A model generated the notes under the pieces. It worked only from the letters and a program-made list of their open reading frames with translations, searched no databases and had not been told where the DNA came from. A stretch of DNA of 32,000 nucleotides from Peristeroidobacter soli (GTDB taxonomy: Bacteria > Pseudomonadota > Gammaproteobacteria > Steroidobacterales > Steroidobacteraceae): NCBI RefSeq assembly GCF_004138485.1, contig NZ_RYEV01000004.1, positions 163,718 to 195,717 on the forward strand, written 5' to 3'. A program made the position numbers and the translations under genes. Within the stretch, counting starts at the first letter, position 1. Each line of letters starts with the position of its first letter. Below are positions 11,062 to 32,000 of the stretch, piece by piece.

Positions 11062-11078
11062 GCGGGAACCTTGATGGA

Positions 11079-11190: not shown

Positions 11191-11231
11191 ATAGAAGCCC
11201 ACGAAAATCGGCAGTCGATTTGAGGCGGCGG

Positions 11232-11237: not shown

Positions 11238-11245
11238 CCAGACGC

Positions 11246-11261
11246 CTACGGTTTGCCGTAG
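11246..11261. promoter_or_regulatory. Palindrome CTACGG-N4-CCGTAG, copy a, overlapping the -35 region of the putative ffs promoter
   Basis: Perfect 6-bp arms. The same arms occur 33 bp away at 11279-11294. Confidence 0.35.
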
Positions 11262-11270
11262 ATCTTGACT

Positions 11271-11294
11271 AACGAAACCTACGGCGCGCCGTAG
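11271..11294 (-). terminator. queF terminator candidate (palindrome copy b plus T-rich tail)
   Basis: On the minus strand, CTACGGCGCGCCGTAG starts 10 nt after the queF stop and is followed by GTTTCGTT. Confidence 0.5.
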
Positions 11295-11304
11295 CGACGC
11301 CCTG

Positions 11305-11793: not shown

Positions 11794-11796
11794 GGC

Positions 11797-13257: not shown

Positions 13258-13311
13258 GAGAGGTGTCGTCACTCCTTACGTGGATATGGACTGCAGAGTA
13301 GAGACTGGGTG

Positions 13312-13884
13312 TTACAGAGCTTTGGCAGCGTCGAGCACGGCCTCGGCGTGACCCGGCACTTTCACCTTGCGCCATTCCTGCCGCAGCACGCCGTCCGCGC
13401 CGATCAGGAACGTGCTGCGCTCCACGCCCATGAACTTGCGACCGTACATGCTCTTCTCCTTGATCACATCGAACAGCTGGCACAGCGCCTGGCTCTCATC
13501 CGAGAGCAGCTCGAACGGGAACCGATACTTCGCCTTGAACTTCTCGTGCGAGGCGATGCTGTCGGTGGAGACCCCGAGAATCACGGTGTTCGCTTTCTTG
13601 AACGCCGGCGCGAGATCGCGGAACGCCTCGCCTTCGGCCGTGCAACCGGTGGTGTTGTCGCGAGGATAGAAATAGATCACGAGGTTCGAGCCCGCCGCCG
13701 CGCTCGACTTCCACGAGCCGCCGCCCGTGACCGCACTGGAGAACGCGGGGACCTTCTTTCCTACCGCGACCTTGCCCGAGCCGCCGCTACTCTTGACCGG
13801 CGCGCTGTTGGCGACCGGGGCTTTCTTCGCAGGCGCTTGCTTGGCCGATTTCTTTGCGGCGACCGAGGTTTTTTTAGCCGGCAT
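13312..13884 (-). CDS. bcp: Thiol peroxidase Bcp (peroxiredoxin) with a Lys/Ala/Pro-rich N-terminal extension
   Basis: The VIYFYPRDNTTGCT peroxidatic Cys motif aligns to E. coli Bcp YFYPKAMTPGCT. About 40 extra N-terminal residues are present (PAKKTSVAAKKSAKQAPAKKAP...). Confidence 0.9.
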   Translation of the reverse strand: MPAKKTSVAAKKSAKQAPAKKAPVANSAPVKSSGGSGKVAVGKKVPAFSSAVTGGGSWKSSAAAGSNLVIYFYPRDNTTGCTAEGEAFRDLAPAFKKANTVILGVSTDSIASHEKFKAKYRFPFELLSDESQALCQLFDVIKEKSMYGRKFMGVERSTFLIGADGVLRQEWRKVKVPGHAEAVLDAAKAL

Positions 13885-14527: not shown

Positions 14528-15406
<879 letters not shown>

Positions 15407-15434
15407 ACGAGGCGCTGGCAACCTTTGCTCCATG

Positions 15435-15466
15435 AAAAAGCCCCTTCGCAGGGGCTTTCTTGTTTG
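15435..15466. terminator. Bidirectional rho-independent terminator between dapA and the convergent receptor gene
   Basis: Perfect 9-bp stem AAAGCCCCT-tcgc-AGGGGCTTT (15437-15458), flanked by an A-run on the left and a T-rich tract on the right. Confidence 0.7.
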
Positions 15467-15476
15467 ATGCCGGCGC

Positions 15477-18068: not shown

Positions 18069-18133
18069 TCCCGTCCCCATTTCTTTCGCGACCATCTACG
18101 CCGCAAAAGAGAGACCAGCCAATGAAAATTTCC

Positions 18134-19057
18134 CTAACCGCGCGGCGTGACGATCAACAGGAATGGCAGGCGTCGCAGCTGCAATCCTGAACCGGCGGCG
18201 AGCGCATCCAGACCGCCGTTGAGATCCTGCACCGACAGCGAGCCGCTCATCGGCATCGCCCCGATGTCGTCATCGAGAAGAATGACAAACCCACGACGAT
18301 AGCGCTCGACGATGCGCAGCGTGTCCTCGAGGCTGGTGTGATCGAGCACGATCCGGCCGGCGCGCCACGCACCTTCGGCATGTGAATCGAAGCCGTGCAC
18401 GCTCGCCGTTGTGCCGGCAACGAACTGCGCCGACTCTCCACTCGCAAGCGGCGTGACGGTGTCGTTGAAATCGACCTCGACGCGACCGTCGCTCACGCTC
18501 ACTTGCAGTCGCGCATCGTGTGTATCGACGGTGAACGCGGTGCCGATGTCGCGAATCACGGCATTCATGGCGCGCACCTGGAACGGGCGACCCGCGTCAT
18601 TGGCGATCGCCACGTGCACTCGCCCGGCACTCACTTCGAGCACTCGCGCTCGAGCATCGTTACGAAAATCTACCGCCGCGCCGCTGTCGAGCCACAGCGT
18701 GCTGCCATCGGGCAATCGCGCCTGACGCACCTCTCCGACCGGTGCGCTGAAGTCGTGCTGAAACAGCCACGGCATCACCGCGAGCAGCATACAAGCGGCG
18801 GCCGCGAGCAGCGCCGGGACGATGAATCTAGAGCGTCGCGGTGGCGCGCGGACTGCGGGCTCAACGGCAGCGAGCCCCGCATACATTCGTCGCGCGCGGT
18901 CGAACGCCCGCCGATGCGATGGATCGCGGTTCAACCACTCCTTCAGTTCCGCCACGTCCTGTTGGGAGACGGCGTCGAGCGACAGACGCGCGACCCAGCG
19001 CACCGCTACATCGGTCACGGTCCGCGGATCGTCTACGGCAGCCACGATTGCATCCAT
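18134..19057 (-). CDS. FecR-family anti-sigma factor / transmembrane sensor
   Basis: VAVRWVARLSLDAVSQQDVAELKEWLNRDPSHRRAFDRA is the typical FecR N-terminus, followed by a single TM (FIVPALLAAAACMLLAV) and a periplasmic domain. The start is taken at MDAIVAAV; the track ORF extends to 19150, overlapping the sigma gene. Confidence 0.85.
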   Translation of the reverse strand: MDAIVAAVDDPRTVTDVAVRWVARLSLDAVSQQDVAELKEWLNRDPSHRRAFDRARRMYAGLAAVEPAVRAPPRRSRFIVPALLAAAACMLLAVMPWLFQHDFSAPVGEVRQARLPDGSTLWLDSGAAVDFRNDARARVLEVSAGRVHVAIANDAGRPFQVRAMNAVIRDIGTAFTVDTHDARLQVSVSDGRVEVDFNDTVTPLASGESAQFVAGTTASVHGFDSHAEGAWRAGRIVLDHTSLEDTLRIVERYRRGFVILLDDDIGAMPMSGSLSVQDLNGGLDALAAGSGLQLRRLPFLLIVTPRG

Positions 19058-19103
19058 GGAGAAAGAGAGACCAGTGAGAATGCAAAACCCCAACCTGCCG
19101 GCG

Positions 19104-19691
19104 TCATCGCTCGTCGTCCTGGGTCGCTTCCAACAGCAGCGACAAGGCATTGCGCAGGTGTTTCTCCACCGCTGTGGTGGAGATCCCGAGCCGCTGCGCG
19201 ATCTCCACTTGCTTCATGCCCTCGAACCGATTCATCGCGAGAATCTGCCGGGTACGCTCCGGCAACCGGCTCAACGTGCCGGTCACCCGGGTGAGCTGCT
19301 CGGTCGCGAGGAAATTGCGCTCCGGCGTGGCTTCATCGATGCCGGACCAGAGCAGATCCTTCACCTCTTCAGTCAGCTCGCTGCGCCGGCGAGCCACGGC
19401 TCGATGATTGGTGGCCAGATTGACGGCGATCCGAAACAGGAACGCGCGTGGGTCGTGCACCGGCTCGGCCGGTGGCGAATGAATGCGAAGGAAGACTTCC
19501 TGGACGATGTCCTGCGCGGTCGCACGACAGCCGATGCGGGCAGCGATGAATCGCAGCAACGCAGGCTCGTGCTCGCGGAACGAAGTGAGCAGGTCGACCG
19601 CAGCGGCCGATCCGCCGGCATCGATGTCGCCGAAGTCTGTCACTCCGCACGCTCCGCGAGCGCTGCGGCTCCCGGTGCGGTCATGGATCAA
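19104..19691 (-). CDS. ECF sigma-70 family factor (FecI-like)
   Basis: Region 2 (AQDIVQEVFLRIH...FLFRIAVNLATNH) and region 4 HTH (QILAMNRFEGMKQVEIAQRLGISTTAVEKHL). Confidence 0.9.
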   Translation of the reverse strand: MIHDRTGSRSARGACGVTDFGDIDAGGSAAAVDLLTSFREHEPALLRFIAARIGCRATAQDIVQEVFLRIHSPPAEPVHDPRAFLFRIAVNLATNHRAVARRRSELTEEVKDLLWSGIDEATPERNFLATEQLTRVTGTLSRLPERTRQILAMNRFEGMKQVEIAQRLGISTTAVEKHLRNALSLLLEATQDDER

Positions 19692-19847
19692 TCCAGGGTC
19701 GAGGGGCGCCTACGGCAAAGAACGTCCGGGCCTCGGCGGGACCGCAATTCGCACCCGCCACTCGCCACTCGCCCGCCGACGGCGTCGCACCGGTCAGCGC
19801 AAGTCCCCGTTCCCGGTCGGCAATCCGGTCCCCGGCCCCTGACAAAT

Positions 19848-19873
19848 TTCAGCAGTTTTCAGCGGACTTCAGC
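19848..19873. repeat. Three TTCAGC hexamers at exact 10-bp spacing (function unknown)
   Basis: TTCAGC occurs at 19848, 19858 and 19868, in the intergenic region between the ECF sigma gene and tRNA-Ser. Confidence 0.5.
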
Positions 19874-19902
19874 CCCTGGCACGGCCGGTCAGAGACCGGG
19901 GT

Positions 19903-19931
19903 TTGCCGACCCGCGCCGCGCCGTGTACCCT
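19903..19931 (+). promoter_or_regulatory. Candidate tRNA-Ser promoter (TTGCCG-17 nt-TACCCT, GC-rich discriminator)
   Basis: The spacing fits a sigma-70 promoter, and the -10 ends 13 nt before the mature tRNA 5' end. The match to consensus is weak. Confidence 0.3.
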
Positions 19932-19944
19932 TCGCGCCCTGACC

Positions 19945-20036
19945 GGAGAGATGGCCGAGTGGTCGAAGGCGCTGGACTGGAATTCCAGTAACATCCTCAC
20001 AGGTGTTCCAGGGTTCGAATCCCTGTCTCTCCGCCA
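19945..20036 (+). tRNA. tRNA-Ser (anticodon GGA), long variable arm, encoded CCA
   Basis: Acceptor GGAGAGA/TCTCTCC. Anticodon stem CTGGA/TCCAG with loop CTGGAAT. T-arm GTTCGAATCC. 3' end ...G-CCA at 20034-20036. Confidence 0.95.
19975..20036 (+). repeat. Left copy of the 62-bp direct repeat (attL-like; equals the 3' part of tRNA-Ser)
   Basis: Identical base for base to 25305-25366 (GACTGGAATTCCAGTAACATCCTCACAGGTGTTCCAGGGTTCGAATCCCTGTCTCTCCGCCA). Confidence 0.9.
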
Positions 20037-20156
20037 CCTATCCAAGAAAAATAAGAATTTACGAACGACTTCCCCGTTTGTACCCCAAACCAACCCTCAA
20101 AAAGTTACCGGTTGGAGGGGCTTTAATAGTTCGTTGGTGCCTATGCCCTGCTAGCT

Positions 20157-20654
20157 TTAGATTTCTCCTGGCATGAGCATCCCGCAAAACAGTAGCAACT
20201 TGCCAAGATCAATCTCGGCGCGAGTCCAGTTCTGCGGCATACCTCCTTCTTTGGAGTCGCACACGAACTGTGGGGCTGCATCTGCGGAGAACTGCCATCG
20301 GTAGCCCGTGCCGTGAATGACCTTATTCGCAATATCCCGGAGCGTCAGCGCGCGCGTTTGACCGCTGGCAACGATCAAGGTCCCGAACTCAACGTCAGTA
20401 TGCTCCTTCATATGCTTTCCAACGTTCTCTTCGTCATCTAGTGCGCGCAGGTACACGGCTAGTTCTAAGAAAGCTTGTATTGCTCGATGCTCCGCCATTT
20501 CGAATACAACGACGCCCAAGTTCGCGAACTCCCCTCTGAAATTCTTCTGGCAGTAAATCTCAAGCGGCGTCCGGCTAAACGCAAATTGGAACACCACACA
20601 CATGTTGCGTTCCATTAGCTGCTTCATTGGGAGCGGAATCTTTAGCGTACTCAT
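20157..20654 (-). CDS. Hypothetical protein, 165 aa, no family recognised; degenerate HEPN-like box LRDIANKVIHG
   Basis: Uninterrupted ORF in ~50% GC DNA. No obvious Shine-Dalgarno and no TM segments. Confidence 0.55.
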   Translation of the reverse strand: MSTLKIPLPMKQLMERNMCVVFQFAFSRTPLEIYCQKNFRGEFANLGVVVFEMAEHRAIQAFLELAVYLRALDDEENVGKHMKEHTDVEFGTLIVASGQTRALTLRDIANKVIHGTGYRWQFSADAAPQFVCDSKEGGMPQNWTRAEIDLGKLLLFCGMLMPGEI

Positions 20655-20698
20655 AATTCAACGATGCACTTCAGTCATAGAGACCGTCAAGTTGGGTA

Positions 20699-20733
20699 TA
20701 GAAAAGACCGGGCAGAAAGGACGCACTACCCGG
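20699..20733 (-). terminator. Candidate terminator after the 119-aa gene
   Basis: On the minus strand, CCGGGTAG-tgcgtccttt-CTGCCCGG (one G-U pair) is followed by TCTTTTCT. Confidence 0.4.
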
Positions 20734-20769
20734 CAACCGCAATCGCAACGCCGGCACTGAACTCTGCGA

Positions 20770-21129
20770 TTAGTCGAAGCCGCCAACGCGGGAATTCATC
20801 TTGCTGGCTTGCAACTTATCGGCGAAGTACATGCACACTTTCGCCGCCGTCGCCTTGAACTTGACCGGTACATCCTGAAGCGCGTCGCTGCGCTCCATCT
20901 TTTCCCATACCTTGGGCCCATGGGTCTTGATGGCATCAAAGCGCATGCTGCTGTGAGCCTTCTCGTTCAATCCGAGTAGGAACGACTCGGAATTGAAAAG
21001 CACAATGACAATGTTCTTGTTCGTTCGAACAAGGTCATACAGCTTCGTAACACCGTCTTCCCTCGCAGCTTGTTCGCGAATGAATGTCATGATGGCCGCG
21101 TCGCATGCCAACTGATCAGTCGCTTGCAA
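20770..21129 (-). CDS. Hypothetical small protein (119 aa from TTG at 21129, or 106 aa from ATG at 21090)
   Basis: ORF only; soluble, no recognised motifs; start uncertain. Confidence 0.45.
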   Translation of the reverse strand: MQATDQLACDAAIMTFIREQAAREDGVTKLYDLVRTNKNIVIVLFNSESFLLGLNEKAHSSMRFDAIKTHGPKVWEKMERSDALQDVPVKFKATAAKVCMYFADKLQASKMNSRVGGFD

Positions 21130-21242
21130 GTAGCACAGGTCAACGCGAAATTTGTCTGCGGACGAGATTCAGTGTGTGCGAGCTGATGACAAGCAATGGA
21201 TGCGCTCAGGACCTCCGCAGTTCCCATAGAACCGCACCACTT

Positions 21243-22232
21243 CTAACGCATCCACTGGAATTGCGCAGGGTTGAACGGAGCACTTCCCACCGCGCCCACG
21301 ATCAGCGCGAACCCGATGACTCCGATGAGCCTTCTATTCTGTAATACACGATGGCGAGCGACGGCATAGATGGTGCGATCGATCAATGGCCAAACGAACT
21401 TGTGGAGCAGAACGACACCGAAGACGATGGTGAACACAGACGCGGTTACCACCAGAAAGGCTCGACTTGCCATGAGGAGCACCAGAAATGACCCCAGCCA
21501 TGGATTCCGGTGCATAACGCCAGCAATCATTCCGGATTGCCCGACAGTAAGCAGAATACCTGGCGCGGCGAGATAGATAAGAAGTGATATGAGCGTTGGC
21601 AACAGCTTCTGCGATGCACTCACCTTGCGCGAGACCCACCGGACAAGTAATGACCACAGGAAATCGATTGGGACCGACAAGGCCAATGAGCCGACAAAAA
21701 TGTAGTTGATGAGCAAGAATTCCGGGCCATATGGATCGGGGCGACGGACATACTCTGATGCAATCGTCCAAGTAAACATGATCAGGAATATTGCAAAAGA
21801 GAGTGGCAGCAGGAATATCAAGCGTTCGATCCTTCTGCCGCCCATGAGCGCCGGCAAACTGCCGAGCGCAACAAAAATGACTGGCATGGCCCATACTGCT
21901 GGAATATTCGGTCGGCCCGTGGCAGCAATCAAGTACACGGACATCGAAGCGAGCGCGTAGCTAAAGGACACCCCAACTGCTCGAACCGAAAACAGGGTGG
22001 GACCGAAGATCGCGTCAAATGCTCGCGAGCTTAACTTGGCAGTTTCGGTAACTAGGCGCCGTATGAATGTGCTTGCATTATCGGACCGATCGTTGACGCG
22101 AATCCATAAGTTCTCGAGAGCGTTATGCAGCCGGCTCTCTTCATCCTCATAGAGAAAGAACGCGATGTACAGACAAAGGCTGCCGACTGCGATTGCAAGG
22201 ATTTGGATGGCCATTGTTGATGCTTCTGTCAT
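21243..22232 (-). CDS. Hypothetical polytopic membrane protein, 329 aa
   Basis: N-terminal TM (AIQILAIAVGSLCLYIAFFLY), a ~50-aa polar helical segment, then about seven further hydrophobic helices. No family recognised. Confidence 0.65.
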   Translation of the reverse strand: MTEASTMAIQILAIAVGSLCLYIAFFLYEDEESRLHNALENLWIRVNDRSDNASTFIRRLVTETAKLSSRAFDAIFGPTLFSVRAVGVSFSYALASMSVYLIAATGRPNIPAVWAMPVIFVALGSLPALMGGRRIERLIFLLPLSFAIFLIMFTWTIASEYVRRPDPYGPEFLLINYIFVGSLALSVPIDFLWSLLVRWVSRKVSASQKLLPTLISLLIYLAAPGILLTVGQSGMIAGVMHRNPWLGSFLVLLMASRAFLVVTASVFTIVFGVVLLHKFVWPLIDRTIYAVARHRVLQNRRLIGVIGFALIVGAVGSAPFNPAQFQWMR

Positions 22233-22379
22233 GATCGATTTCGGACGACCTCCTCACACCGTAGTCATAGTCGGCGAATGTCAACTTCTCAGCGGGCCTG
22301 GTCCTGCGACACTGCGCCCAACGTTCCATAGACCCTGCCACACGGGAACGAGCCGGCAATGTCGCATTATATGCGAGAA

Positions 22380-23035
22380 GACGTGAGCAAGGGTCGGTCC
22401 GCACGACAGGAAATATTTGATCGAGTTCACGACCTTTTATTGGAAACAGCGGGTCAAGCCGATGGTACTGCTCAAACCGACAAAGGCGAACCGGCAGAGA
22501 TCGACCAAGCCATCGACCGTCGATGGGGCTACGCGCGTTTCTTGAGGTGACCTAGACTGAGTTGCTTGATATTGCGACTAGCCAGGACTGGAAAACGAAG
22601 AAAGCCTATAACAACGGACTCACACCGCTGCGCCGTGCTTTCGCGTTCGAAAATCATCTGGACGGGAAGAACCCGGCGGAGAATCTGGAGAACTTTCGGG
22701 TCACGATAAAGATCGCCGACCGTCGAGGAGCCCTCACCGCGCAAGAGACCGCACTCATCATCGCGTCCATTCATGGCAAACGGGGGGCGAGCTCATCGGC
22801 AACTATGATGAGTTCCAGTTTTTCACCGGCCTGCGGTAGTCGGAGCAGATTACGCTATGTGCGCACAATGCAGCCGGTTGGACCGAAGAAGATATCGTGC
22901 GAACAAACAAGCAATGGCGGCGAGGTAACCGGCGGGCGCATCAGGGCGCCCTCGCATGCCCGCAGGCTCCCCAGCAAACGCAACTTGAAGCCATCCGCTC
23001 CGGTTGGGAACCAAGTAAGTCACTGACTTTAATGG
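22380..23035 (+). pseudogene. Tyrosine recombinase (phage-type integrase) remnant, frameshifted, with a premature stop and 3'-truncated
   Basis: One frame gives the core-binding-like LDIATSQDWKTKKAYNNGLTPLRRAFAFENHLDGKNPAENL...LTAQETALIIASIH. A shifted frame continues GELIGNYDEFQFFTGLR*SEQI, with TAG at 22837-22839 where TGLRPSE normally has Pro. The HxxR and catalytic Tyr regions are absent. Confidence 0.7.
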
Positions 23036-23154
23036 CGACTTGAGCCCAAGGCCACCTGAAGTCCCCGCTCCTACCACCATAGCTGCCACCAATTGCGCGT
23101 CGAGGGCGCCCTCCAGCTGACTCTCTCCGAGCGTTATTTTTGAAAAAAATATTT

Positions 23155-23175
23155 AATCGTAGCCCTACTACGATT
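23155..23175. promoter_or_regulatory. Inverted repeat 1 upstream of abiEi (AATCGTAG-N5-CTACGATT)
   Basis: Perfect 8-bp arms inside an AT-rich promoter-like tract containing two TTGAAA hexamers. Confidence 0.5.
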
Positions 23176-23212
23176 ATCTTGAAAAATTTAAACTTTGGAG
23201 GAATACTTGTAT

Positions 23213-23229
23213 TCGTAGCATGACTACGA
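23213..23229. promoter_or_regulatory. Inverted repeat 2 spanning the abiEi start codon (TCGTAG-cATGa-CTACGA)
   Basis: Same core arms as repeat 1, 58 bp downstream. The ATG at 23220 sits in the spacer. Confidence 0.5.
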
Positions 23230-23963
23230 CACGACACACTATCCTAAAGACCGTCCTGGCGCGTTTGCCCGCCGGTGCTCCCGTGACCTCGGCCGACCTG
23301 ACCGGGTACGGAGTTTCGCCGGACCTCGCCGTTCACTATGTTCGAGCCGGGTGGCTCAACCGGCTCGAGCGCGGTGTGTTTCTACGCCCTGGCGATACGT
23401 TATCGCTCGCTCCCTCTCTGCTGTTGCTAGAACGCAAGCTGACCGGATTGCATGTCGGTGGGAAATCGGCGTTGGAGTGGCACGGCATACGCCACTACGT
23501 CTCGCAGCAGACGACGCTGCATCTTTACGGCTGGGTGGCGGGTCGCCTTCCCGCGTGGTTCACAGACCAATTCCCCTCGGACTACCACCGCAAACGCCTT
23601 TTTAAAGAAAAGCCAGAGACCCCGCTGCATGTGGCTCGCTTCGAAGGGCTGCAAGCGGGCGGCAACCCACTGGTGTCGTCGCCTGAGCGCGCCCTACTCG
23701 AACTGCTTAGCGAGGTCGGCGTCCGCCAGCCACTGTCGGAAGCTCGTGAGCTCACCGAAGGCACTCACACACTGCGTGCTAGCGCCTTATCGAATCTGCT
23801 CAAACACTGCACGAGCGTTAAAACGGTCCGCCTCTGCCTCACGCTTGGACGGGAACTCTCCTCACCCTGGGTTAGCAAACTCGATCCCAAGCAACTTCCC
23901 ACGGGCAGTGACAAACCGTGGGTGTCGCGATCCTCCGAAGGCACACTGGTATTGAAGCCGTGA
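23220..23963 (+). CDS. abiEi: Type IV toxin-antitoxin system AbiEi-family antitoxin / transcriptional regulator
   Basis: N-terminal winged-helix-like region (VTSADLTGYGVSPDLAVHYVRAGWLNRLERGVF) and the SSPERALLELL motif typical of AbiEi. It is paired with an AbiEii gene. Confidence 0.88.
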   Translation: MTTTRHTILKTVLARLPAGAPVTSADLTGYGVSPDLAVHYVRAGWLNRLERGVFLRPGDTLSLAPSLLLLERKLTGLHVGGKSALEWHGIRHYVSQQTTLHLYGWVAGRLPAWFTDQFPSDYHRKRLFKEKPETPLHVARFEGLQAGGNPLVSSPERALLELLSEVGVRQPLSEARELTEGTHTLRASALSNLLKHCTSVKTVRLCLTLGRELSSPWVSKLDPKQLPTGSDKPWVSRSSEGTLVLKP

Positions 23964-24877
23964 ATCAGGTGTATCTCGACACCGCTCGCTTGCTCACGCA
24001 AGTCGCACCTCTCGTGCTGAACACAGATGACTTTGCCCTCAAAGGCGGCACTGCAATCAACTTGTTCCTCCGAGACATGCCACGGCTGTCGGTCGACCTC
24101 GATCTCGCATTCATCGATCACACCCTCTCGCGCGAGGACGCACTCAAGCGCATCAGCGATACACTCCATGGAAGCCGAAAACAGCTGCAGCGATTGGGCT
24201 TCAACGTCAGAACCGTTGCGGTTGCAAGCGCTCCGGACACCAAAATGTTCGTCCGTCGACAGAACATCGAGATCAAAGTTGAAGTCAATTTCGTCACTCG
24301 CGGCCTGGTCGGCCGCGTGGTCTCACGATCACTCACGCAGCGAGCACAGGACGCTCTCCAGGCGGAAACCGAAGTCCCCATCGCCTCGAGCGAGGACGTC
24401 TATGCGGGCAAGCTGGTCGCAGCGCTCGACCGACAGCATCCACGCGACCTGTTTGATGTAATGCAGCTATTTGAGCACGAAGGCATTACACCAGCGATCC
24501 GCCGTGCGTTCGTCCTCTATCTCGCCAGCCACGATCGCCCGCTTCACGAAGTGCTCGCCCCAAAGCGTCGAGACCTCACGCTGGACTATGAAGGCGCCTT
24601 TAAGGGCATGACGGCTGACGTCGTTCCCCTGGATCAACTCGAGGGGGCACGCGAACGTCTCGTCGCTGATCTCCAACGGGACCTCGATGCGACCGAGCGC
24701 CAGTTCCTCCTATCGTTTGTGAACCTGACACCTGAATGGGCGCTGCTGAATATTCCGCACGCTGCAACCCTGCCCGCGCTTCGCTGGAAGATCTCGAACT
24801 TGGAACGCCTGCGGGAGAAGAATCCAGCAAAGTTCGCCCAGCAGGCGGATTCATTGGCCGCAGTCCTCAATATGTAG
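23960..24877 (+). CDS. abiEii: Nucleotidyltransferase AbiEii/AbiGii-family toxin
   Basis: FALKGGTAINLFLRDMPRLSVDLDLAF is the AbiEii nucleotidyltransferase motif. The GTG at 23960 overlaps the abiEi TGA (GTGA), suggesting translational coupling. The track's ATG at 23918 would overlap abiEi by 46 nt. Confidence 0.88.
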   Translation: MNQVYLDTARLLTQVAPLVLNTDDFALKGGTAINLFLRDMPRLSVDLDLAFIDHTLSREDALKRISDTLHGSRKQLQRLGFNVRTVAVASAPDTKMFVRRQNIEIKVEVNFVTRGLVGRVVSRSLTQRAQDALQAETEVPIASSEDVYAGKLVAALDRQHPRDLFDVMQLFEHEGITPAIRRAFVLYLASHDRPLHEVLAPKRRDLTLDYEGAFKGMTADVVPLDQLEGARERLVADLQRDLDATERQFLLSFVNLTPEWALLNIPHAATLPALRWKISNLERLREKNPAKFAQQADSLAAVLNM

Positions 24878-25304
24878 CTCGCGAGTTTCTCTCATTTTCT
24901 CGTCAGGCCGACGGCGACGAGACCATCGTGGCGCAGAGACGCGCGTGTTCATGTGCGCTGTGGGTATGCTAAAAAGCAATGGCCAATTTTCTTCGGTCGC
25001 AATCGCTGCCTTTTTCCAGACGCCGTCCTCGCCGGCTGAAAATCCATAGGAGTTTCGCAGTGCGCTTACCCGGGCCTGAGCCAGCCCGCTCGTATACAAT
25101 CAAGCCGCTTAAGATGCTGGAACGGAGCGACGAGGCCTCGAACTTTCGGTACGCGCGCCGTCGAGCTTGGCGGTGAAGCCGGTACCCATTCTGTACCCAA
25201 CAGAGGAAAAGCGAGCGTGATCTGGGGTAACGAAGAGCCTTCGAGTTTGGCTGTAACACCTTACGCTGGCTCATGTTAGCTGTTAGTCGCTGCTGTGAAG
25301 ATGA

Positions 25305-25366
25305 GACTGGAATTCCAGTAACATCCTCACAGGTGTTCCAGGGTTCGAATCCCTGTCTCTCCGCCA
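25305..25366 (+). repeat. Right copy of the 62-bp direct repeat (attR-like partial tRNA-Ser)
   Basis: Exact copy of 19975-20036. It lacks the tRNA 5' half, so it is not a functional tRNA. Confidence 0.9.
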
Positions 25367-25395
25367 GATCCCCCCCTCGTGCCGGCGCACGCCTC

Positions 25396-28300
25396 TCAAT
25401 ACTCCTTTTTGAATTGAGGGTGCACCCAGCGAAACTCCTGCCGCTTCGAGAGCACCCGAACCAGGCCGCCGTAGTTCGCCGCCGGGTCCACTCGCCTCAG
25501 CAGGGCATGGAACTCTCTCAAGCCGGCGCCATCCGCCACGACGACGGCGCCGGGACCTTGCAACCAACGCTCGCTCTCGGCGGCCGTCTCATCTAGGAGC
25601 TCTCCGGCACCGAGCGTCGCGTCGATCACCTCCTTGGAGAAATCGAGCTGATGCTCGAGCTCCTTGTACCGCGCCTCCTCGATGAGCAGCGGCGCGCCGG
25701 AAACCGCCACGGGCAGAACAAGCCTCAGCGCGGTATTCATCACCTTCAAATAAGGCGCGACCGTTTTGAACCAGGCTCGGTCCAGCTCGATCTCATACAC
25801 CCCGACGCGCTCGTCGCCGCCCAGGAAATGGGTCGGCAGGCGCGAATGTTCGCACCATAGGGTGATTCTGAATTTCGCGGAGAGCCACTGCCGCGGATGA
25901 AACTTGCTTCGCTCGACGGGCGCCACGCTGATCAGACGCGGTCCGTTGACGGCCTCATCGGTCAAAGAGCGAACGATGGCGGCATAGCAACTGTCGGCGC
26001 GACTGAGCAGCTCGCGCTGCCCCGCCGTCAGCTCCGACACTCGAGCGATGAGCGCACCGTGATGCGCGGTGAGCAGTTGCCGGATGTCACGCAGCTCCTG
26101 AACGATGCGCGCGCCTTGTAAATCAGCCGGCACCGGCGCGGCCGGAAGCGCATTCCGAAGCAAATGGTCGATCTGCTGCCACATGCCGCACGTCGGACAG
26201 GGAAACTCGGAGCGCCCTCCGCGCTTGCTCGCCAGCAGTGGATCCACGCGAAACAGACCGGTGCCCGCCGCGCCCCGACCGCACGGATGAACGCATGGGA
26301 CCATGACTTCGCACTCCAGTCCGGTCCAGTAGCTCTCCACCAGATATTTCACCTCACTGGTGAGCATCGCAAGCAAGCGCTCGGGGTAAGCCGCGCGCAC
26401 CGTGATGCGAACGTTCGAATCGACGTACTCGAGCAACGCCCGGCCGTTGTAGCTGTCATCGACCACCAGTCCGCGCTGCCAGTGCACGCTGTGAGCGAAG
26501 TTCACACGCCCCAGCGAGTACTTATGCAGACGCACGATCAATTGATAAAACAGCCCCTCGGCCAGTGCCGGAGTCCCTTTGCCGTCGACGATTCTGCAGA
26601 TCTGCTGCTGCTGCTGATCCCCGCTCTGGAGCGAGGCGTCGGGCCAGACCTGCTGCAGATCGACCATCGGCCTGACATCGGGAACGAGCTGAGCGATGAG
26701 GCTCGTGTAAGCAAGCGGGCGCGCGTCGATGACCGCGTGCGACACGTGACTGGCCGCCTGCAATTTCACCTGCTGGCTGAAACTCAGACTATCGATCGGC
26801 TCACCCGCGAGCACGACCTTGTAAGAGATGTCGAATCGTTCCATGAGCCGCAGAAACAATGGATGCAGATCGGGCGCATATCGGACTGCCTCGGGCCGCC
26901 GCGGATCGTTCCAGAGTTGACTCAGGCGCGTGAAGCTCACCAGGCCCCGGCTGTCCCGCGTGACCTTGTCGTCGAGCACGAAACTGATCGCGGTGGCGAG
27001 CCAATCCGGCTTGAGAATGACGAGATCGCGCAGCGCCAGATCGTGTTCGTAGTGAATCAAGTGGCCGAGCCGATGTGAGATTGCGAGGAACAGCGCGATC
27101 TCCTCGTCGCTCATCGCGAAGCCACGACAAATCTTCCGGACTGTCTCGACACTCAGGTAAGGCGCGCCCCGATGCAACAGTCGCTGACGGGCTCCGCGCC
27201 ATTTGAGCGGTGCGACCCGTCGGACATCCGGTAACTCGAGCGCCGCACGGCCAATGGCCTCTCTGAGCTCCGGGACACCGCGACGATGCCGCTGGGAGTC
27301 GGGCTTGTTCTCGACATGAAAGAAATCGAGCACGGTGTCGCGCCCGAACAGATCCCACAACTCCTGTCGGTCGATATCGGGCTGCCGTTCATCCGGGCCA
27401 CCGTGCGTGCCCACCACGAAGATTTTCGCGGCGGGCGCACGATGCAAGATCAGGCGAATCCACTCCTTCACCAGATTCTGCTGTGCCCCCTCGCGCGGTT
27501 TCCAGACCACCAGGTAAATCGCAGGCGCGGAGAAGAACAATTGATGCGTGGGCCGATAGACGCGCTGCCCGCCGAAATCCCAGCAGTTCAGCGACAGCCC
27601 CGGCGCCCCCGGTGCGCTGATTTTCATCGGCTGAACCTGGATGCCGTGCGTCGAGGAGTGTTCCTTCCACGGCCGCTCGCACAGCGCATCCAGCAGACAC
27701 GTCTTGCCCACCTCGCCTTCGCCGACCAGGATGAGCTTCGCCTCGAACAGCGGCGCGTGTTCCAGCTTCTGCGCCTTCAGGTACGTCTTGAGCGACGGGA
27801 AACCCAGTTCGATCGCGGCTCGCAACTCGTAGGACAGCGGATTCTTCCCGCTCTCCAGATAGGAGAGATTGCACTCAGCCAACGACGGCGGCAGCGTGAC
27901 GAGGTGGTTGCGATCGACCCAGAGGCTCTGCAGGCCCGTATTGCCGATCGAGTCCGGCAGGTTCATCAGCTCGTTCTCGGAGAGTCGCAACTCCCGCAGG
28001 TTCCTGAGAGCGCCAATGGCATCGGGCAACGACCGCAGCTTGTTGCGATGAAGAATCAAGACTTCCAGAGCGCGACACCGTGTCAGCTCCGCCGGCAATT
28101 CCGTCAGCGCATTGTTGTGAGCAAATAGCTCCCGAAGCGAGCGCCACTCACTGCAGTAGCCCGGCAGACTCTGCAGACGATTGTTCGAGATCAACAGCGC
28201 TCTGAGCGACGCCATCCCGCGCAGAGCATCGCCCATGCGCTCGATCCCACAACTGGTCAGATTCAGATACTCCAACTGCGACAACAGCCGCAACGACTCC

Positions 28301-28599
28301 GGCAGCGTCGGCAGATGAGCGCTCGCGAGGCTCAGCCGTTTCAAGGTTTTCAGTTGATAAAGCGACTCCGGCAGCGCGAGCAAACGCGAGCCGTCGGCAG
28401 CGGGCTCGAGCACCAGCTCGGTGGCGCCGCCGGCGCGCGCCGCTTCGATCTTGGCGGCAGCCTTGACGTAGGCTGCGTTGAGCGTATACGGGGGCGGCCC
28501 CTTGCCGCGATCTGTCATTCTCACGATCGTTCTTCCATCCCCTGTGTGAGCCCCGAAGAGCGCCGGGGCGAATGGCCTCTTCCAGGTAGACCGTCGCAT
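25396..28599 (-). CDS. Prokaryotic ROCO protein: LRR - Roc GTPase - COR - Cys-knuckle - unassigned C-terminal domain
   Basis: About 9-10 LRRs (LxxLxLxxNxLxxLP). Roc P-loop ILVGEGEVGKT, G3 WDFGGQ and an LRRK-like G4 VVGTHGGPD. COR-like HRLGHLIHYEHDLALRDLVILKPDWLATAISFVLD. The start is either the ATG at 28599 or the ATG at 28518 (MTDRGKG...). Confidence 0.85.
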   Translation of the reverse strand: MRRSTWKRPFAPALFGAHTGDGRTIVRMTDRGKGPPPYTLNAAYVKAAAKIEAARAGGATELVLEPAADGSRLLALPESLYQLKTLKRLSLASAHLPTLPESLRLLSQLEYLNLTSCGIERMGDALRGMASLRALLISNNRLQSLPGYCSEWRSLRELFAHNNALTELPAELTRCRALEVLILHRNKLRSLPDAIGALRNLRELRLSENELMNLPDSIGNTGLQSLWVDRNHLVTLPPSLAECNLSYLESGKNPLSYELRAAIELGFPSLKTYLKAQKLEHAPLFEAKLILVGEGEVGKTCLLDALCERPWKEHSSTHGIQVQPMKISAPGAPGLSLNCWDFGGQRVYRPTHQLFFSAPAIYLVVWKPREGAQQNLVKEWIRLILHRAPAAKIFVVGTHGGPDERQPDIDRQELWDLFGRDTVLDFFHVENKPDSQRHRRGVPELREAIGRAALELPDVRRVAPLKWRGARQRLLHRGAPYLSVETVRKICRGFAMSDEEIALFLAISHRLGHLIHYEHDLALRDLVILKPDWLATAISFVLDDKVTRDSRGLVSFTRLSQLWNDPRRPEAVRYAPDLHPLFLRLMERFDISYKVVLAGEPIDSLSFSQQVKLQAASHVSHAVIDARPLAYTSLIAQLVPDVRPMVDLQQVWPDASLQSGDQQQQQICRIVDGKGTPALAEGLFYQLIVRLHKYSLGRVNFAHSVHWQRGLVVDDSYNGRALLEYVDSNVRITVRAAYPERLLAMLTSEVKYLVESYWTGLECEVMVPCVHPCGRGAAGTGLFRVDPLLASKRGGRSEFPCPTCGMWQQIDHLLRNALPAAPVPADLQGARIVQELRDIRQLLTAHHGALIARVSELTAGQRELLSRADSCYAAIVRSLTDEAVNGPRLISVAPVERSKFHPRQWLSAKFRITLWCEHSRLPTHFLGGDERVGVYEIELDRAWFKTVAPYLKVMNTALRLVLPVAVSGAPLLIEEARYKELEHQLDFSKEVIDATLGAGELLDETAAESERWLQGPGAVVVADGAGLREFHALLRRVDPAANYGGLVRVLSKRQEFRWVHPQFKKEY

Positions 28600-28632
28600 T
28601 CTGAGTCATGAGCCCTGAAGAGAGGTGTCGGA

Positions 28633-29598
28633 TCAGCGCGGCTCCTCCACACCATGGCCCGCGGCACGCAGGCTGGCCACGACACCCTTGCCCCGTGAGA
28701 CCACGTGGATGGGTAACACCACCAGCGTCGTCTCATTGCGATTCAGCGCCCGTTCGAGCGCGCTGAGCAGCTTGTTCTCCGCCTCCAGCTGCAGCTGCCC
28801 CACTTGCTGCTGACTGAGAAAGGGCCAGCTGTACGCCAACGATTGAGCGTACGAAGCATCCGCTTCCACCAACGTCCGCAACACCTCCATGTCGCCCCGG
28901 GCCCAGGCATTCGCGCGAGCGCGCGCCTGTGTCATGTCGATTTCCAAACGATCCATCGTCTCGACCAGATAGTTGACGGCGTTCTGGCGAGACAGCCGCG
29001 AGCTGTTCTTGTCCGGTGTCACCGGCCCCATCTCATATTGCAGCCCGCGAATGGGCACCGCATGCGCGCCCGCGACCTGATAGATCCTGCGCCACACGTC
29101 ATCGCCGTAGCTGAGCCCGATGCGCTCATATGCTCGCGACCGAAGCAGCAGGGCCGCCGCCGTCGGCAATAGTTTCTCCGTCTCGGGATCCTCGCCGATG
29201 TACTCGTCCCGCAACGTTCGCCACCGCGCATACACCTTGCGAGGCAAGACATCTTTGAGTCTGCTGCCTTGAGACTGATAGGGCTGCACCTGCTTCACTC
29301 GCAACGAAGCCGAGTACGGTCCCAGCACTTCGTTCGACGCCGCGATCACTTCTTCCACCTGCTTCGATCGCCACACCATTCCTCGGGGCGTCGGAACATA
29401 TGTTCCGAGAATCCACAATGTGTGCGAGCCCTTCGTCACTTTCCAGAGCCCTGGTCCCGGCTGCTCGCCGAGCACCAGCACTTCTTCCGGCACGCCCACG
29501 GGAGTGCTTTCCTCCGACGCGCATGCATCCCATGCCACTGCAAAAAGCAGCCGGCAGAACCAGGCACAGCCCACGCCGATGTTTCTGATCTTTTCCAT
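28633..29598 (-). CDS. Secreted TraB/GumN-family protein
   Basis: Signal peptide, LWKVTKGSHTLWILGT N-terminal block, and C-terminal ALERALNRNETTLVVLPIHVVSRGKGVVASLRAAGHGV block typical of the family. The usual His after the GT block reads Tyr here. Confidence 0.7.
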   Translation of the reverse strand: MEKIRNIGVGCAWFCRLLFAVAWDACASEESTPVGVPEEVLVLGEQPGPGLWKVTKGSHTLWILGTYVPTPRGMVWRSKQVEEVIAASNEVLGPYSASLRVKQVQPYQSQGSRLKDVLPRKVYARWRTLRDEYIGEDPETEKLLPTAAALLLRSRAYERIGLSYGDDVWRRIYQVAGAHAVPIRGLQYEMGPVTPDKNSSRLSRQNAVNYLVETMDRLEIDMTQARARANAWARGDMEVLRTLVEADASYAQSLAYSWPFLSQQQVGQLQLEAENKLLSALERALNRNETTLVVLPIHVVSRGKGVVASLRAAGHGVEEPR

Positions 29599-29677
29599 GA
29601 GACGCAGCTCACACCTCTCGTCACGAGATCATAAACGACTCCTTGACCTCTAACTCCACATATGTAGACTTATCGCC

Positions 29678-29992
29678 ATGGCACGCACCCGACGCCCCTC
29701 CGGTCAGACGCTCAATCTGTTCCGCAGCCTCATCGAGGAGCCGAAGCAGTGGCGCCATGGATATGAGCTTTCCAAGGCGACGGAGCTCATGTCCGGCACG
29801 CTCTATCCCATCTTGATGCGCCTGTCCGAGCGAGGTTTGCTCGAACACAAGTGGGTACCGCCCGACGATGGCGGCCGCCTGCCCCGCCACGTCTATCGCC
29901 TGACCGCGAAGGGTCTCGCGCACGCCCGGGAACAGATCGAGCTGTGCGCGGCGACGAATGCACCGGCCGGTCGTCCCCTGCGTCACGCATGA
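29678..29992 (+). CDS. PadR-family transcriptional regulator
   Basis: HGYELSKATELMSGTLYPILMRLSERGLLEHKW...RHVYRLTAKG is the canonical PadR winged helix. Confidence 0.9.
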   Translation: MARTRRPSGQTLNLFRSLIEEPKQWRHGYELSKATELMSGTLYPILMRLSERGLLEHKWVPPDDGGRLPRHVYRLTAKGLAHAREQIELCAATNAPAGRPLRHA

Positions 29993-30639
29993 ACGATCTC
30001 ATCTCACTGTGCCTGCGCCTCACGTCTGCGCTGATGGGCAAGGACGGCAGTGAGTGGTCGCGTGCGATGTACGTCGAATTGAATCACGTGCCCCACGACG
30101 ACCGACTCTCGTGGGCACTGGGCTGTGTGATTGCGGGCATGAAATGGAGGATTGAAACCATGCGCAGCGGGAATCTTCGGGTCTCGCGCGGAGTGCTGTT
30201 CCTGGAATTGCTCCTTTGTTTCCTGCCAATCACGCTGGGCTGGTGGGATGCGGTGTTCGGGGCATCCGGCGTGCTCGGCCTGAACCAAAGCACCCTCCAG
30301 GACTACTTCCTGGCCACGCCACTCGGCCGCGCCATCCTGGGCATGATGATCGGCGGCGCCGTCATCGGCCTGTCGGGACCGATCGGATTGTTTCTAACCT
30401 CACGAGCGGTGATCACGGGTGCCGGCCTGCGCAGTCGCCCGCTCGGCATCGCGATGATTGCCGGCGTCACGCTCTTCATCCTGGCCTCCATCCTGCTGCG
30501 GCTGATCGCCGCGCCCGGCGCCTACGCCGCGAACTTCAGCTTCGTCGTTCTGATCGGCCTGTTGCCCGTGCTCGGCACGGCGCATCTCATGTATCTCTCA
30601 CACACCGAGCCTCGCGCCGGGTTGTCCGTTTCTAGATAA
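29989..30639 (+). CDS. Hypothetical membrane protein coupled to PadR
   Basis: The ATG at 29989 overlaps the PadR TGA (ATGA). It has a short cytoplasmic N-terminal region and then about 4-5 TM helices. This is a common PadR partner arrangement. Confidence 0.7.
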   Translation: MNDLISLCLRLTSALMGKDGSEWSRAMYVELNHVPHDDRLSWALGCVIAGMKWRIETMRSGNLRVSRGVLFLELLLCFLPITLGWWDAVFGASGVLGLNQSTLQDYFLATPLGRAILGMMIGGAVIGLSGPIGLFLTSRAVITGAGLRSRPLGIAMIAGVTLFILASILLRLIAAPGAYAANFSFVVLIGLLPVLGTAHLMYLSHTEPRAGLSVSR

Positions 30640-30699
30640 TTCCTGTCCCGAACGAACGAGTCACGAGCGCGCGATCTCGACGACTGGACGAGCCGACTC

Positions 30700-30727
30700 A
30701 CCGCCGTGCATCATCGCGGCGGTTTTC
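30700..30727 (+). terminator. Candidate terminator after the PadR-membrane pair
   Basis: ACCGCCG-tgcatcatcg-CGGCGGT followed by TTTCC. Confidence 0.45.
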
Positions 30728-30745
30728 CAACGTCCCGCGTGCGCA

Positions 30746-32000
30746 ATGAATCCACGTCCTTCGCTCTTTTGCCTGCTCGCCCTGCTTTTCTTCGCAGCCA
30801 CCTCCGCGATGAGCGCGGAGCAGCCGCTCGACGTACTCATCGTCAACGCGCGCATCGTCGATGGCGGCGGCAATCCCTGGTATCGCGGTAGCGTAGGCAT
30901 CCGTGACGGGCGCATCGTTGCCGTCGTGCCCGGACCGCTGCAAGCGCCGAGCAAGCGCACGATCGACGCCGCCGACCGGGTGCTGGCGCCGGGCTTCATC
31001 GACCTGATGGGACAGGAAACATTTGTCTACCTGACCGATCCCGACACCGCGCGCTCTCGTCTGTATCAAGGCGTGACGACACACGTGAGCGGCGAAGGCT
31101 CCTCCCATGCGCCACAGAACGAGCGTACCCAGAGCAAGCCCGAGATGCTCGATGGCAAGCCGGTGCGCTGGCGCAGCTACAAGGAATACTTCCAGATCCT
31201 GGAGTCGCACGGCGTGCCCATCAACGTGGCACACAACGTCGGCGCGGGCCAGATTCGCTCGGTGGTCATGGGCGAGGCGGATCGAGCGCCGACGCCGGCC
31301 GAAATGGAACAGATGAAGAAGCTCGTCGCGGAGGCCATGGACGACGGCGCGTTTGGCCTGTCCACCGCGCTCATCTATCCGCCCGGCGCATATGCGACGA
31401 CGCAGGAGATTGCCGAGCTCGCCAAGGTGGCGGCGAGCCGCGGCGGGTTCTACTCGACTCACATGCGCAACGAAAGCGTCGGCCTGCTGCAGGCCATCGA
31501 TGAGAGCATTCAAATTGGAGAGCTGGCCGGACTGCCGGTGCACATCTATCACTTGAAGGCCGCCGGCAAGCGACAGTGGCCGCTGATGACCCAGGCCATC
31601 GACCGCATCGATGCGGCACGCGCTCGCGGACTGGATGTGACGTCCGATATCTATCCTTACATCCGCAACGGCATCGGTCTCGAGTCGTTCCTGCCGCCGA
31701 CGCTCTATGCCAATGGCTTCGAGGCGGCGAAGAAACAGGTTGCCAAGGCAGCCAAGCGGCGCGAGCTGCGCACGGAGCTGGAGAATCCGAACACGACGTG
31801 GGAGAACTGGTATCAGCACGTGGGTGCCGACTGGAGCAAGGTGCTGGTCACCGATGCAGGCAAGTACCCGCGCGAGGCCGCGGGCCTGTCAGTGGCGGAC
31901 ATTGCCAAGAAGGAAGGCCGCGACGTCTGGGAGACCTTCTTCGATCTGTCGATGGCGCAAGTGACCGTGGCCCCGGAGAGCATGGATGAGGAACAAAAGC
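30746..32000 (+). CDS. Periplasmic D-aminoacylase-like amidohydrolase (N-acyl-D-amino-acid deacylase family); 3' end outside the window
   Basis: Absent from the ORF track (no stop within the window). Hand translation from the ATG at 30746 gives MNPRPSLFCLLALLFFAATSAMSAEQPLDVLIVNARIVDGGG...APGFIDLMGQ...GVTTHVSGEGSS...YSTHMRNES...VHIYHLKA...DIYPY, colinear with Alcaligenes D-aminoacylase. Confidence 0.85.
   Translation, partial: MNPRPSLFCLLALLFFAATSAMSAEQPLDVLIVNARIVDGGGNPWYRGSVGIRDGRIVAVVPGPLQAPSKRTIDAADRVLAPGFIDLMGQETFVYLTDPDTARSRLYQGVTTHVSGEGSSHAPQNERTQSKPEMLDGKPVRWRSYKEYFQILESHGVPINVAHNVGAGQIRSVVMGEADRAPTPAEMEQMKKLVAEAMDDGAFGLSTALIYPPGAYATTQEIAELAKVAASRGGFYSTHMRNESVGLLQAIDESIQIGELAGLPVHIYHLKAAGKRQWPLMTQAIDRIDAARARGLDVTSDIYPYIRNGIGLESFLPPTLYANGFEAAKKQVAKAAKRRELRTELENPNTTWENWYQHVGADWSKVLVTDAGKYPREAAGLSVADIAKKEGRDVWETFFDLSMAQVTVAPESMDEEQK

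Follow-up and report, generated by a model that had tools for sequence, protein, structure and literature searches.

A Roco-family GTPase with a conserved C-terminal domain encoded at a variable tRNA-Ser locus of Peristeroidobacter soli

Over about 20 years, prokaryotic Roco proteins have stood in for LRRK2 in biochemical work. They are described only as proteins in which leucine-rich repeats (LRR) precede a Roc GTPase and a COR domain, and their function in the native cell is not stated (PMC6337361, PMC11052575). In the best structural match to the protein studied here, CtRoco from Chlorobaculum (Chlorobium) tepidum, two copies pack into a compact dimer with the LRR folded onto Roc-COR; once GTP is bound, the LRR turns by ~135 degrees and the dimer is driven apart into monomers, until hydrolysis resets the switch (PMC11052575, PMC6337361). 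Precedents for related modules in biological conflict are the Roc-COR-CHAT protease of a Runella gasdermin system (bioRxiv 10.1101/2021.06.07.447441) and the combinations of AP-GTPase and COR in predicted conflict systems of multicellular bacteria (PMC7159879). Here we focused on a ROCO gene in a stretch of 32,000 nucleotides (nt) of the Peristeroidobacter soli genome (contig NZ_RYEV01000004.1, positions 163,718 to 195,717), referred to below as the window. Its product is an intact, cytoplasmic, stand-alone Roco-family GTPase, in which LRR, Roc, COR-A and COR-B are followed by a further C-terminal domain, the tail. Databases already list the protein, under a generic name, and Rocos are a familiar family in bacteria. 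The large subfamily to which it belongs (>1000 clusters at 50% identity) carries this extra domain, which is as conserved as the COR domains and has no recognised fold. For the output that the Roco switch has been missing, the tail is the natural candidate.

The original prediction, made from the DNA sequence alone, described a ROCO open reading frame (ORF) of 1067 residues, which is present as described and runs uninterrupted over 3.2 kb (Table 1). A record at NCBI that is 100% identical, the 1040-residue 'COR domain-containing protein [Peristeroidobacter soli]', has M28 of this ORF as its first residue, and the alignments with homologues also begin there. Because of this agreement between annotation and homologues, M28 (nt 28518) is probably the real start. 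Residue numbers in the text and table refer to the 1067-residue ORF, and numbering from M28 is 27 lower (e.g., C763 = C736). Promoter prediction in the 114 nt upstream of M28 gave no promoter-like site.

Table 1. Features of the ROCO gene and its surroundings, given as positions in the window.
Feature	Position (nt)	Strand	Residues and description	Source
Maximal ROCO ORF	25396-28599	-	1067 residues, stop codon included	ORF list
Likely true ROCO coding sequence	25396-28518	-	1040 residues from M28	NCBI annotation and homologue alignment
LRR array	27805-28419	-	residues ~61-265; ~9 repeats with a period of 22-23 residues	Pfam LRR_8, LRR_4, LRR_14 and AlphaFold2 model
Roc GTPase	27403-27738	-	residues 288-399	PF08477, E 2.5e-20
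P-loop GEGEVGKT	27703-27726	-	residues 292-299	read from translation
Switch II DFGGQ		-	residues 341-345	read from translation
G4 region GTHGGPD		-	residues 397-403	read from translation
COR-A	26815-27210	-	residues 464-595	PF16095, E 4.7e-28
COR-B	26155-26568	-	residues 678-815	PF25497, E 2.9e-24
Family-specific C-terminal domain (tail)	25399-26154	-	residues 816-1067, ~250 residues	alignments, AlphaFold2 model, null searches
Tail, first parts			variable helical hairpin; alpha/beta core with G-P-R-L (886-889)	
W-C-E-H of the tail	25846-25857	-	residues 915-918	tail alpha/beta core
Long hydrophobic tail helix	25681-25737	-	residues 955-973	hydropathy
Tail end			disordered loop, then terminal E-F-x-W-V-H (1055-1060)	
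tRNA-Ser(GGA)	19945-20036	+	one tRNA found	ARAGORN
Left repeat copy	19975-20036		3' 62 nt of tRNA-Ser	
Right repeat copy	25305-25366	+	62-nt 3' end of tRNA-Ser; right island boundary	
Island	20037-25304	.	low GC, 5.3 kb, between tRNA-Ser and the ROCO gene	
AbiEi antitoxin/regulator	23220-23963		island	
AbiEii nucleotidyltransferase toxin	23918-24877		island	

The domains that had been read from the translation were all recovered by profile searches, with Pfam matches to LRR_8 (E 1.7e-14, residues ~72-265), to PF08477 for Roc and to PF16095 for COR, to which PF25497 adds COR-B. The full-length AlphaFold2 model, built with 40 sequences, has a predicted local distance difference test score (pLDDT) of 73 and a predicted template modelling score (pTM) of only 0.54; it shows nine evenly spaced beta-strands in the LRR region, where the block-mean pLDDT exceeds 85. 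A search of sequences in the Protein Data Bank (PDB) with the protein returned CtRoco (6HLU, 8R4B; E ~1e-28 over residues 131-565), LRRK2 (E ~1e-25) and Roco2 of M. barkeri (MbRoco2). The structural comparison that the original prediction had proposed as a check, carried out with Foldseek on the full-length model, likewise placed CtRoco 6HLU closest (E 1.4e-22), followed by LRRK2 (1e-21), LRRK1 (8e-21) and MbRoco2 (1.5e-16). By every sequence and fold criterion the protein is a group-1 (LRR-Roc-COR) Roco protein, the prokaryotic layout with an N-terminal LRR defined in PMC6337361.

The P-loop and switch II motifs named in the original prediction were both found in the translation, and the G1, G2 and G3 residues of Roc are intact in the protein and invariant across the family. 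The G4 box had been read as GTHxxxD, as in LRRK-like proteins. Its TH-type character holds, whereas its Asp is not conserved: T398-H399-G-G alone is invariant in the G4 region of the family, and D403 is replaced by Q in most homologues. In the family alignment, the conserved acidic residue near G4 is D408, within an RQPD motif. COR-B carries four cysteines, C763, C769, C801 and C804 (C-x5-C ... C-x2-C; window 26188-26313), that are invariant among 40 family members. They suggest a possible zinc-binding knuckle, and we encountered no description of such a knuckle in COR-B in the literature. Pfam found no STAND domain (NACHT, NB-ARC) in the protein, and its NTPase is Roc/Ras-like. The proposed likeness to STAND/NLR sensors therefore holds as an analogy of design and not as membership of that class, because the NTPase is Ras-like rather than STAND.

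Next, we consider the region after COR-B. The original prediction had left ~300 residues unassigned; the unassigned tail is real, and its length is ~250 rather than ~300 residues, as COR-B extends as far as residue 815. A search with the whole ROCO protein matched more than 2000 proteins at E <=1e-10, and the best non-self matches share 46-57% identity with it over 84-97% of its length. As these full-length matches come from many phyla, the tail belongs to a conserved architecture. In an alignment of 23 tails, the mean column identity was 57%. Among 75 tails that represent 50%-identity clusters, P887, R888, L914, C916, E917, P922, G933 and W943 are each present in at least 95%, with P887, R888, C916, E917 and W943 invariant, and H918 and the terminal E-F-x-W-V-H in at least 80%. 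A profile of the tail, searched against 1.84 billion cluster representatives, retrieved 1085 tail-bearing proteins (50% identity clusters), mostly from Chloroflexota and filamentous cyanobacteria, and among the matches listed the tail lies at the C-terminal end. Ten distant tail proteins were scanned for domains: all ten have COR-A and COR-B upstream of the tail, five have a full Roc and two a partial Roc, and the rest are cut at the N-terminus. One of these ten also contains an extra region with a sub-threshold nSTAND-like match.

Whether the tail is an already known domain had been named as a check, and searches of Pfam, NCBIfam, PDB and the viral fold database BFVD all ended without a match. 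The tail itself matched nothing in Pfam or NCBIfam, and scanning its members one by one against both gave scattered weak matches only, with coiled-coil models in two or three members. The tail profile had no match among PDB sequences, including full-length CtRoco, even at E <=10. In Foldseek searches with the tail model, the best E value was 1.8 against PDB folds and 0.27 against BFVD. A single-sequence search of residues 561-1067 against PDB also returned nothing for the tail; as it missed the COR-B of CtRoco as well, this silence at the level of sequence is weak evidence. No description of a Roco-specific conserved C-terminal domain was found in the literature, of which our coverage was incomplete.

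In the AlphaFold2 model of the tail (pLDDT 74.9, pTM 0.74), a helical hairpin is followed by a five-stranded alpha/beta core and two long helices; after a disordered loop, the chain ends in a beta-hairpin and then a short helix. The first of the long helices (955-973) is the most hydrophobic 19-residue stretch of the protein in 117 of 121 family members, with 19-residue Kyte-Doolittle means of 1.22-1.97 (median 1.56). Judged from hydropathy, this is borderline for a membrane helix, and a buried core helix would be equally compatible. A SLATT-type effector would have two transmembrane helices where the tail has one borderline hydrophobic helix, and SLATT_1 was matched weakly in one of the 23 tails (E 0.03). 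The idea of a gasdermin-like tail was rejected, as the PDB folds gave no match.

The domains of the protein differ in how fast they evolve. Identity of homologues to the query is lowest in the LRR (37%); it is 55% in the tail core, 62% in COR-A, 65% at the tail end, 68% in COR-B and 71% in Roc. Across the family, between 104 and 467 residues precede the P-loop. The same pattern is seen over a short distance: among nine syntenic Microcoleus orthologues, the LRR is 69% identical and has both gained and lost repeats, while Roc-COR and the tail are each 91% identical. The Nei-Gojobori ratio of nonsynonymous to synonymous substitution rates (dN/dS) in these nine orthologues is 0.63 in the LRR, with a maximum of 1.70, compared with 0.17 in Roc-COR and 0.20 in the tail. 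Fast-evolving repeats thus stand beside a constrained Roc-COR and tail. A fast sensor joined to a constrained switch and tail provides a concrete, falsifiable hypothesis.

The ROCO gene lies within the variable part of a tRNA-linked locus, as was revealed by comparison with relatives. The adjacent TraB/GumN gene has orthologues at 98% identity on a JGI contig (L088), at 85% in Steroidobacter flavus, 84% in S. agaridevorans and 85% in P. agariperforans. In contrast, the ROCO protein has no relative above 57% identity, and its best relatives, at 53-57%, are from other phyla. The L088 contig shows the order PadR, TraB, a 152-bp gap, tRNA-Ser, sigma factor, FecR and TonB receptor, with neither the island found in the window nor the ROCO gene. 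In BLASTN comparisons, window positions 28628-32000 are 98.1% identical to L088, and nothing in L088 matches 20037-25304 or 25369-28627. The tRNA segment of the window (19791-20036, tRNA-Ser with ~155 bp upstream) is inverted with respect to its flanks relative to L088, as seen when window 19751-20036 is set beside L088 10976-11246. In S. flavus (L089), the tRNA is oriented as in the window, and 7.05 kb of unrelated ORFs separate its 3' end from TraB. The interval between tRNA-Ser and TraB thus measures 0.15, 7.0 and 8.6 kb in three genomes. As both its size and its contents differ, this interval is truly variable in the genus and the ROCO gene is part of its variable content, which bears out the tRNA-Ser hotspot that had been predicted. 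The ROCO gene is also convenient experimentally: it is a single gene of a named species that is naturally missing in a near-identical relative, which aids deletion and transfer experiments.

Two further differences from L088 were observed near the tRNA. In L088, a clear hairpin with a T-run (gccccgcgagggggcttttt) lies downstream of tRNA-Ser; this terminator hairpin was searched for in the window and is not present there. On the other side of the tRNA, L088 (11247-20966) has two clusters of sigma, FecR and TonB-receptor genes where the window (14872-19750) has one. Up to about nt 17703, the window cluster is 98.5% identical to one of the L088 clusters, and over 15476-19750 it is 88% identical to the other, a mosaic that suggests recombination or deletion between paralogous iron-uptake clusters.

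To place the gene among its homologues, we scanned 185,579 species genomes and found at least 301 loci that encode the tail. The best 80 of these 301 were classed by their record titles: 39 are from Chloroflexota, 15 from cyanobacteria (mostly Microcoleus) and 9 from Acidobacteriota, followed by 3 each from Chlorobi, Verrucomicrobiota and gammaproteobacteria, 2 from Cytophagia, 1 from Calditrichia and 1 each from Desulfococcaceae, Myxococcales, Bdellovibrionales, Thermoguttaceae (Planctomycetota) and an unclassified bacterium. A member of Steroidobacter/Peristeroidobacter is an unusual host for a ROCO of the tail type. Clustering of the ORFs that flank 60 loci gave only synteny within genera, and the idea of a conserved operon partner was rejected.

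Several local arrangements were observed around the homologues. In Anaerolineae, tail-type ROCO genes occur in arrays with tail-less LRR-Roc-COR paralogues and with NACHT-like P-loop proteins that have transmembrane tails. In three Chloroflexota/Anaerolineales metagenome-assembled genomes (L031, L034 and L059, ~3200-13600), such arrays lie on one strand and include one or two tail-less paralogues, and a P-loop NTPase of ~650-730 residues with a long hydrophobic, glycine-rich C-terminal region is encoded directly upstream. On a JGI contig (L005, 7619-13330), a 649-residue protein with a weak patatin match and a 125-residue TIR_2 protein are encoded directly upstream on the same strand, with gaps of 3-50 nt, and a DDE transposase lies 8 kb from the ROCO homologue; this patatin/TIR_2 association was the only one of its kind that we saw. 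Six loci (L033, L040, L058, L063, L075 and L087), of Chloroflexota and one Methylomonas, encode a protein of ~130 residues 50-400 nt upstream of the ROCO gene and on its strand; this protein is apparently of the PD-(D/E)XK type (PDDEXK_3, 'GxxExxY'). In two related genomes from one sample (L003 and L004, 9619-13600), a 92-residue HTH_3 protein is encoded upstream and a TadA-like cytidine/adenosine deaminase downstream, and synteny on the upstream side is identical.

How might this protein work? By analogy with CtRoco, the LRR would at rest be folded on Roc-COR in a dimer held together by Roc and COR-B. Binding of GTP, which a ligand at the fast-evolving surface of the LRR might promote, would let the LRR swing away and change the oligomeric state, and GTP hydrolysis would reset the switch; we infer this GTP cycle from homology with CtRoco. 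The tail would most likely be the output of the switch, released or re-oriented toward a target, where it could act through an enzyme or metal site around C-E-H (with H1060) or through its unusually hydrophobic helix. The role served may be the sensing of conflict or stress, such as defence against invading elements. This role appears the most likely one, given that the gene is polymorphic for presence or absence in a variable tRNA-linked locus and that its switch and tail evolve much more slowly than its sensor. We hold the whole chain, from a GTP-gated LRR-sensing switch through the tail output to a role in conflict or stress, only tentatively, as a proposal whose chances lie a little below even. 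A role in conflict or defence is plausible and is favoured indirectly by the polymorphism of the locus, the fast LRRs, the clustering with NACHT proteins and Roco paralogues, and the one patatin and TIR operon.

A number of observations weigh against this proposal. The GC content at third codon positions (GC3) of the ROCO gene is 0.776, which is host-like when compared with TraB (0.752) and the TonB receptor (0.793) and unlike the island (0.61-0.68), and thus gives no hint that the gene was imported recently. The L088 relative may have lost the ROCO gene during its local inversion; as L088 carries the derived inversion, recent loss there is as plausible as gain in P. soli. Misaligned repeats may have pushed up the dN/dS of the LRR, given that dS, too, is higher there. 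No catalytic fold can be recognised in the tail, the model of which is of moderate confidence only. The ROCO gene is solitary in seven annotated neighbourhoods, among mostly metabolic or housekeeping neighbours, the exceptions being one with patatin and TIR_2 upstream and one with an ORF6N gene upstream, and the Microcoleus loci keep their synteny. Searches of IMG/VR contigs, PLSDB plasmids and INPHARED phages yielded no relatives of the tail, and the ROCO protein matched 0 families of PADLOC-DB 2.0 at E <=1. The single-gene anti-phage sensor-effector suggested in the original prediction stays a proposal.

The same prediction had proposed neighbourhood statistics as a check. For the 150 ORFs that lie closest to the gene in 45 homologous loci, PADLOC matched at most three ORFs per family (PDC-S60 with three). 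GajB models matched two ORFs each, both of which also match Pfam UvrD-helicase domains. With Pfam, the families of other LRR-Roc-COR proteins were the most frequent, with up to six ORFs, then PDDEXK_3 with four and NACHT with three. In these counts, which come from crudely called ORFs and have no background rate beside them, no clear excess of defence genes is apparent, a point to be set against a role in conflict.

Much of the same evidence bears on a different explanation, in which the protein has no part in immunity and serves as an ordinary GTPase in signalling or regulation. It could, for example, be a scaffold that ties an LRR-bound protein partner to envelope, cytoskeletal or developmental processes in bacteria whose lifestyles are complex, with the tail as a module for localisation or oligomerisation. 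Such a protein would suit the hosts of the family, as 54 of the best 80 loci are from Chloroflexota or cyanobacteria, many of which are filamentous, and it would agree with the housekeeping neighbours, the stable synteny in Microcoleus, the host-like base composition, the strong purifying selection on Roc-COR and the tail, and the silence of PADLOC. Eukaryotic ROCO proteins, too, work in signalling and trafficking (PMC6337361). However, a signalling gene of this kind fits poorly with the absence of ROCO from the other sequenced Steroidobacter/Peristeroidobacter genomes and from the 98%-identical relative, with a patchy distribution at ~50% identity across distant phyla, with LRRs that evolve quickly and change in copy number, and with paralogue arrays that include NACHT proteins. 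We consider ordinary signalling a serious but rather doubtful explanation; if it is correct, the tail would still be a useful domain annotation, of modest importance. At the other end lies a bolder version of the conflict role, in which LRR-Roc-COR-tail proteins are a widespread family of single-protein GTPase immune or conflict sensors, the Ras-like counterpart of STAND/NLR proteins, with the tail as a new effector. This generalisation we find unlikely at present, and equally so the picture within it of the tail as a membrane-active helix or a Cys/His metal or catalytic site that is released when the LRR detects an invader. If it were true, the ties of LRRK2 and of the ROCO proteins of algae and plants to innate immunity would have a root in prokaryotes.

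Two other explanations are far less probable. Partial NCBIfam matches to XopAC (88 bits), XopAE (80 bits), XopL, SlrP and SspH2 raise the idea of a secreted LRR effector directed at a eukaryotic host, like Xanthomonas XopAC, XopAE and XopL or Salmonella SlrP and SspH2. These matches are confined to the LRR region and fall far under the curated cut-offs (88 vs 450, 80 vs 600, 58 vs 500), on which ground a type III secretion effector was rejected. Furthermore, homologues occur in free-living Chloroflexota, cyanobacteria and Acidobacteriota, and none of the neighbourhoods examined contained secretion genes, which makes a secreted effector very improbable. That the gene is a decaying or inactive remnant without current function might be read from its position as a lone copy beside an island and from the lack of a predicted promoter-like site in the stretch upstream of M28. 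Yet the ORF is unbroken over its full 3.2 kb, all family-invariant residues are kept (G1, G2, G3, the four cysteines, CEH and the terminal WVH) and the codon composition is host-like; decay is extremely improbable.

The present surroundings of the gene are defined by an island that is not part of the ROCO gene itself. Along the window, the order is TonB-dependent receptor, FecR and an ORF at 19104-19691 (all on the minus strand), tRNA-Ser, the island, ROCO and TraB/GumN (both on the minus strand) and PadR; the ORF at 19104-19691 occupies the position of the relative's extracytoplasmic function (ECF) sigma gene. The two ends of the island are marked by 62-nt direct repeats that match perfectly; in shuffles, the 25-nt core at the 3' end of the repeat had zero chance occurrences. 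As predicted, the ROCO stop codon (25396-25398) sits 29 nt from the right repeat, which ends at 25366. GC content is 52-58% in the island compared with 61-66% in the flanks. The AbiEi and AbiEii ORFs of the island overlap by 46 nt, and its three other large ORFs have no match in Pfam. One of these three (21243-22232, 329 residues) appears rich in hydrophobic residues. No integrase was matched among the island ORFs scanned; judged by eye, the ORF at 22562-23026 may be an integrase remnant. A second, degenerate tRNA 3' end beyond the ROCO gene, as would mark an older island scar, was not found at up to three mismatches.

Comparison with known systems shows where the protein is familiar and where it departs from them. 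CtRoco (PDB 6HLU, 8R4B-D) has the same order of LRR, Roc, COR-A and COR-B and is the best structural match (E 1e-22), yet overall identity is only ~17%, and the tail profile of the ROCO family found no counterpart in it. A cellular role is likewise not established for CtRoco. The reviews PMC6337361 and PMC11378527 give none for prokaryotic Rocos, in agreement with the original prediction, and our incomplete coverage of the literature found no anti-phage or other cellular role for the LRR-Roc-COR-tail layout. The eukaryotic ROCO proteins LRRK2, LRRK1 and MFHAS1 share the LRR-Roc-COR core and a TH-type G4 instead of NKxD. Unlike them, the P. soli protein has no kinase, WD40, ankyrin or armadillo domains and ends in a different C-terminal domain, and members of the tail-type family do not conserve the Asp of the LRRK2 'THxD' at the position that corresponds to it. 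The candidate immune receptors of the LRR-ROCO type in brown algae (PMC11378527) have the LRR-ROC-COR layout, and their LRRs also diversify and change in copy number; they do so by exon shuffling and splicing, they have no equivalent of the tail, and their immune role is likewise only proposed.

Among bacterial conflict systems, the Runella Roc-COR-CHAT protein has a comparable layout, in which a bacterial Roc-COR is fused to a C-terminal output in a cell-death system. The P. soli protein differs from it by its N-terminal LRR, by an output of unrecognised fold that has no CHAT/caspase (Peptidase_C14) match, and by its neighbours, which are TraB/GumN, PadR and the AbiE island and not an adjacent gasdermin gene as in Runella. 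The vWA-MoxR 'ternary' systems (Kaur et al. 2020, PMC7159879) contain Roc-like GTPases that are strictly linked to COR, have a predicted role in conflict and are enriched in multicellular bacteria. These modules comprise multiple genes with vWA and MoxR partners, whereas the ROCO gene is solitary, with no conserved partner in the 60 loci. STAND/NLR-like sensors such as Avs and bNACHT use a STAND ATPase where the ROCO protein, which has no NACHT, NB-ARC or PADLOC matches, uses a Ras-like GTPase. They follow the same logic of a repeat sensor, an NTPase switch and a C- or N-terminal output, and in some Anaerolineae members of the ROCO family adjoin NACHT proteins.

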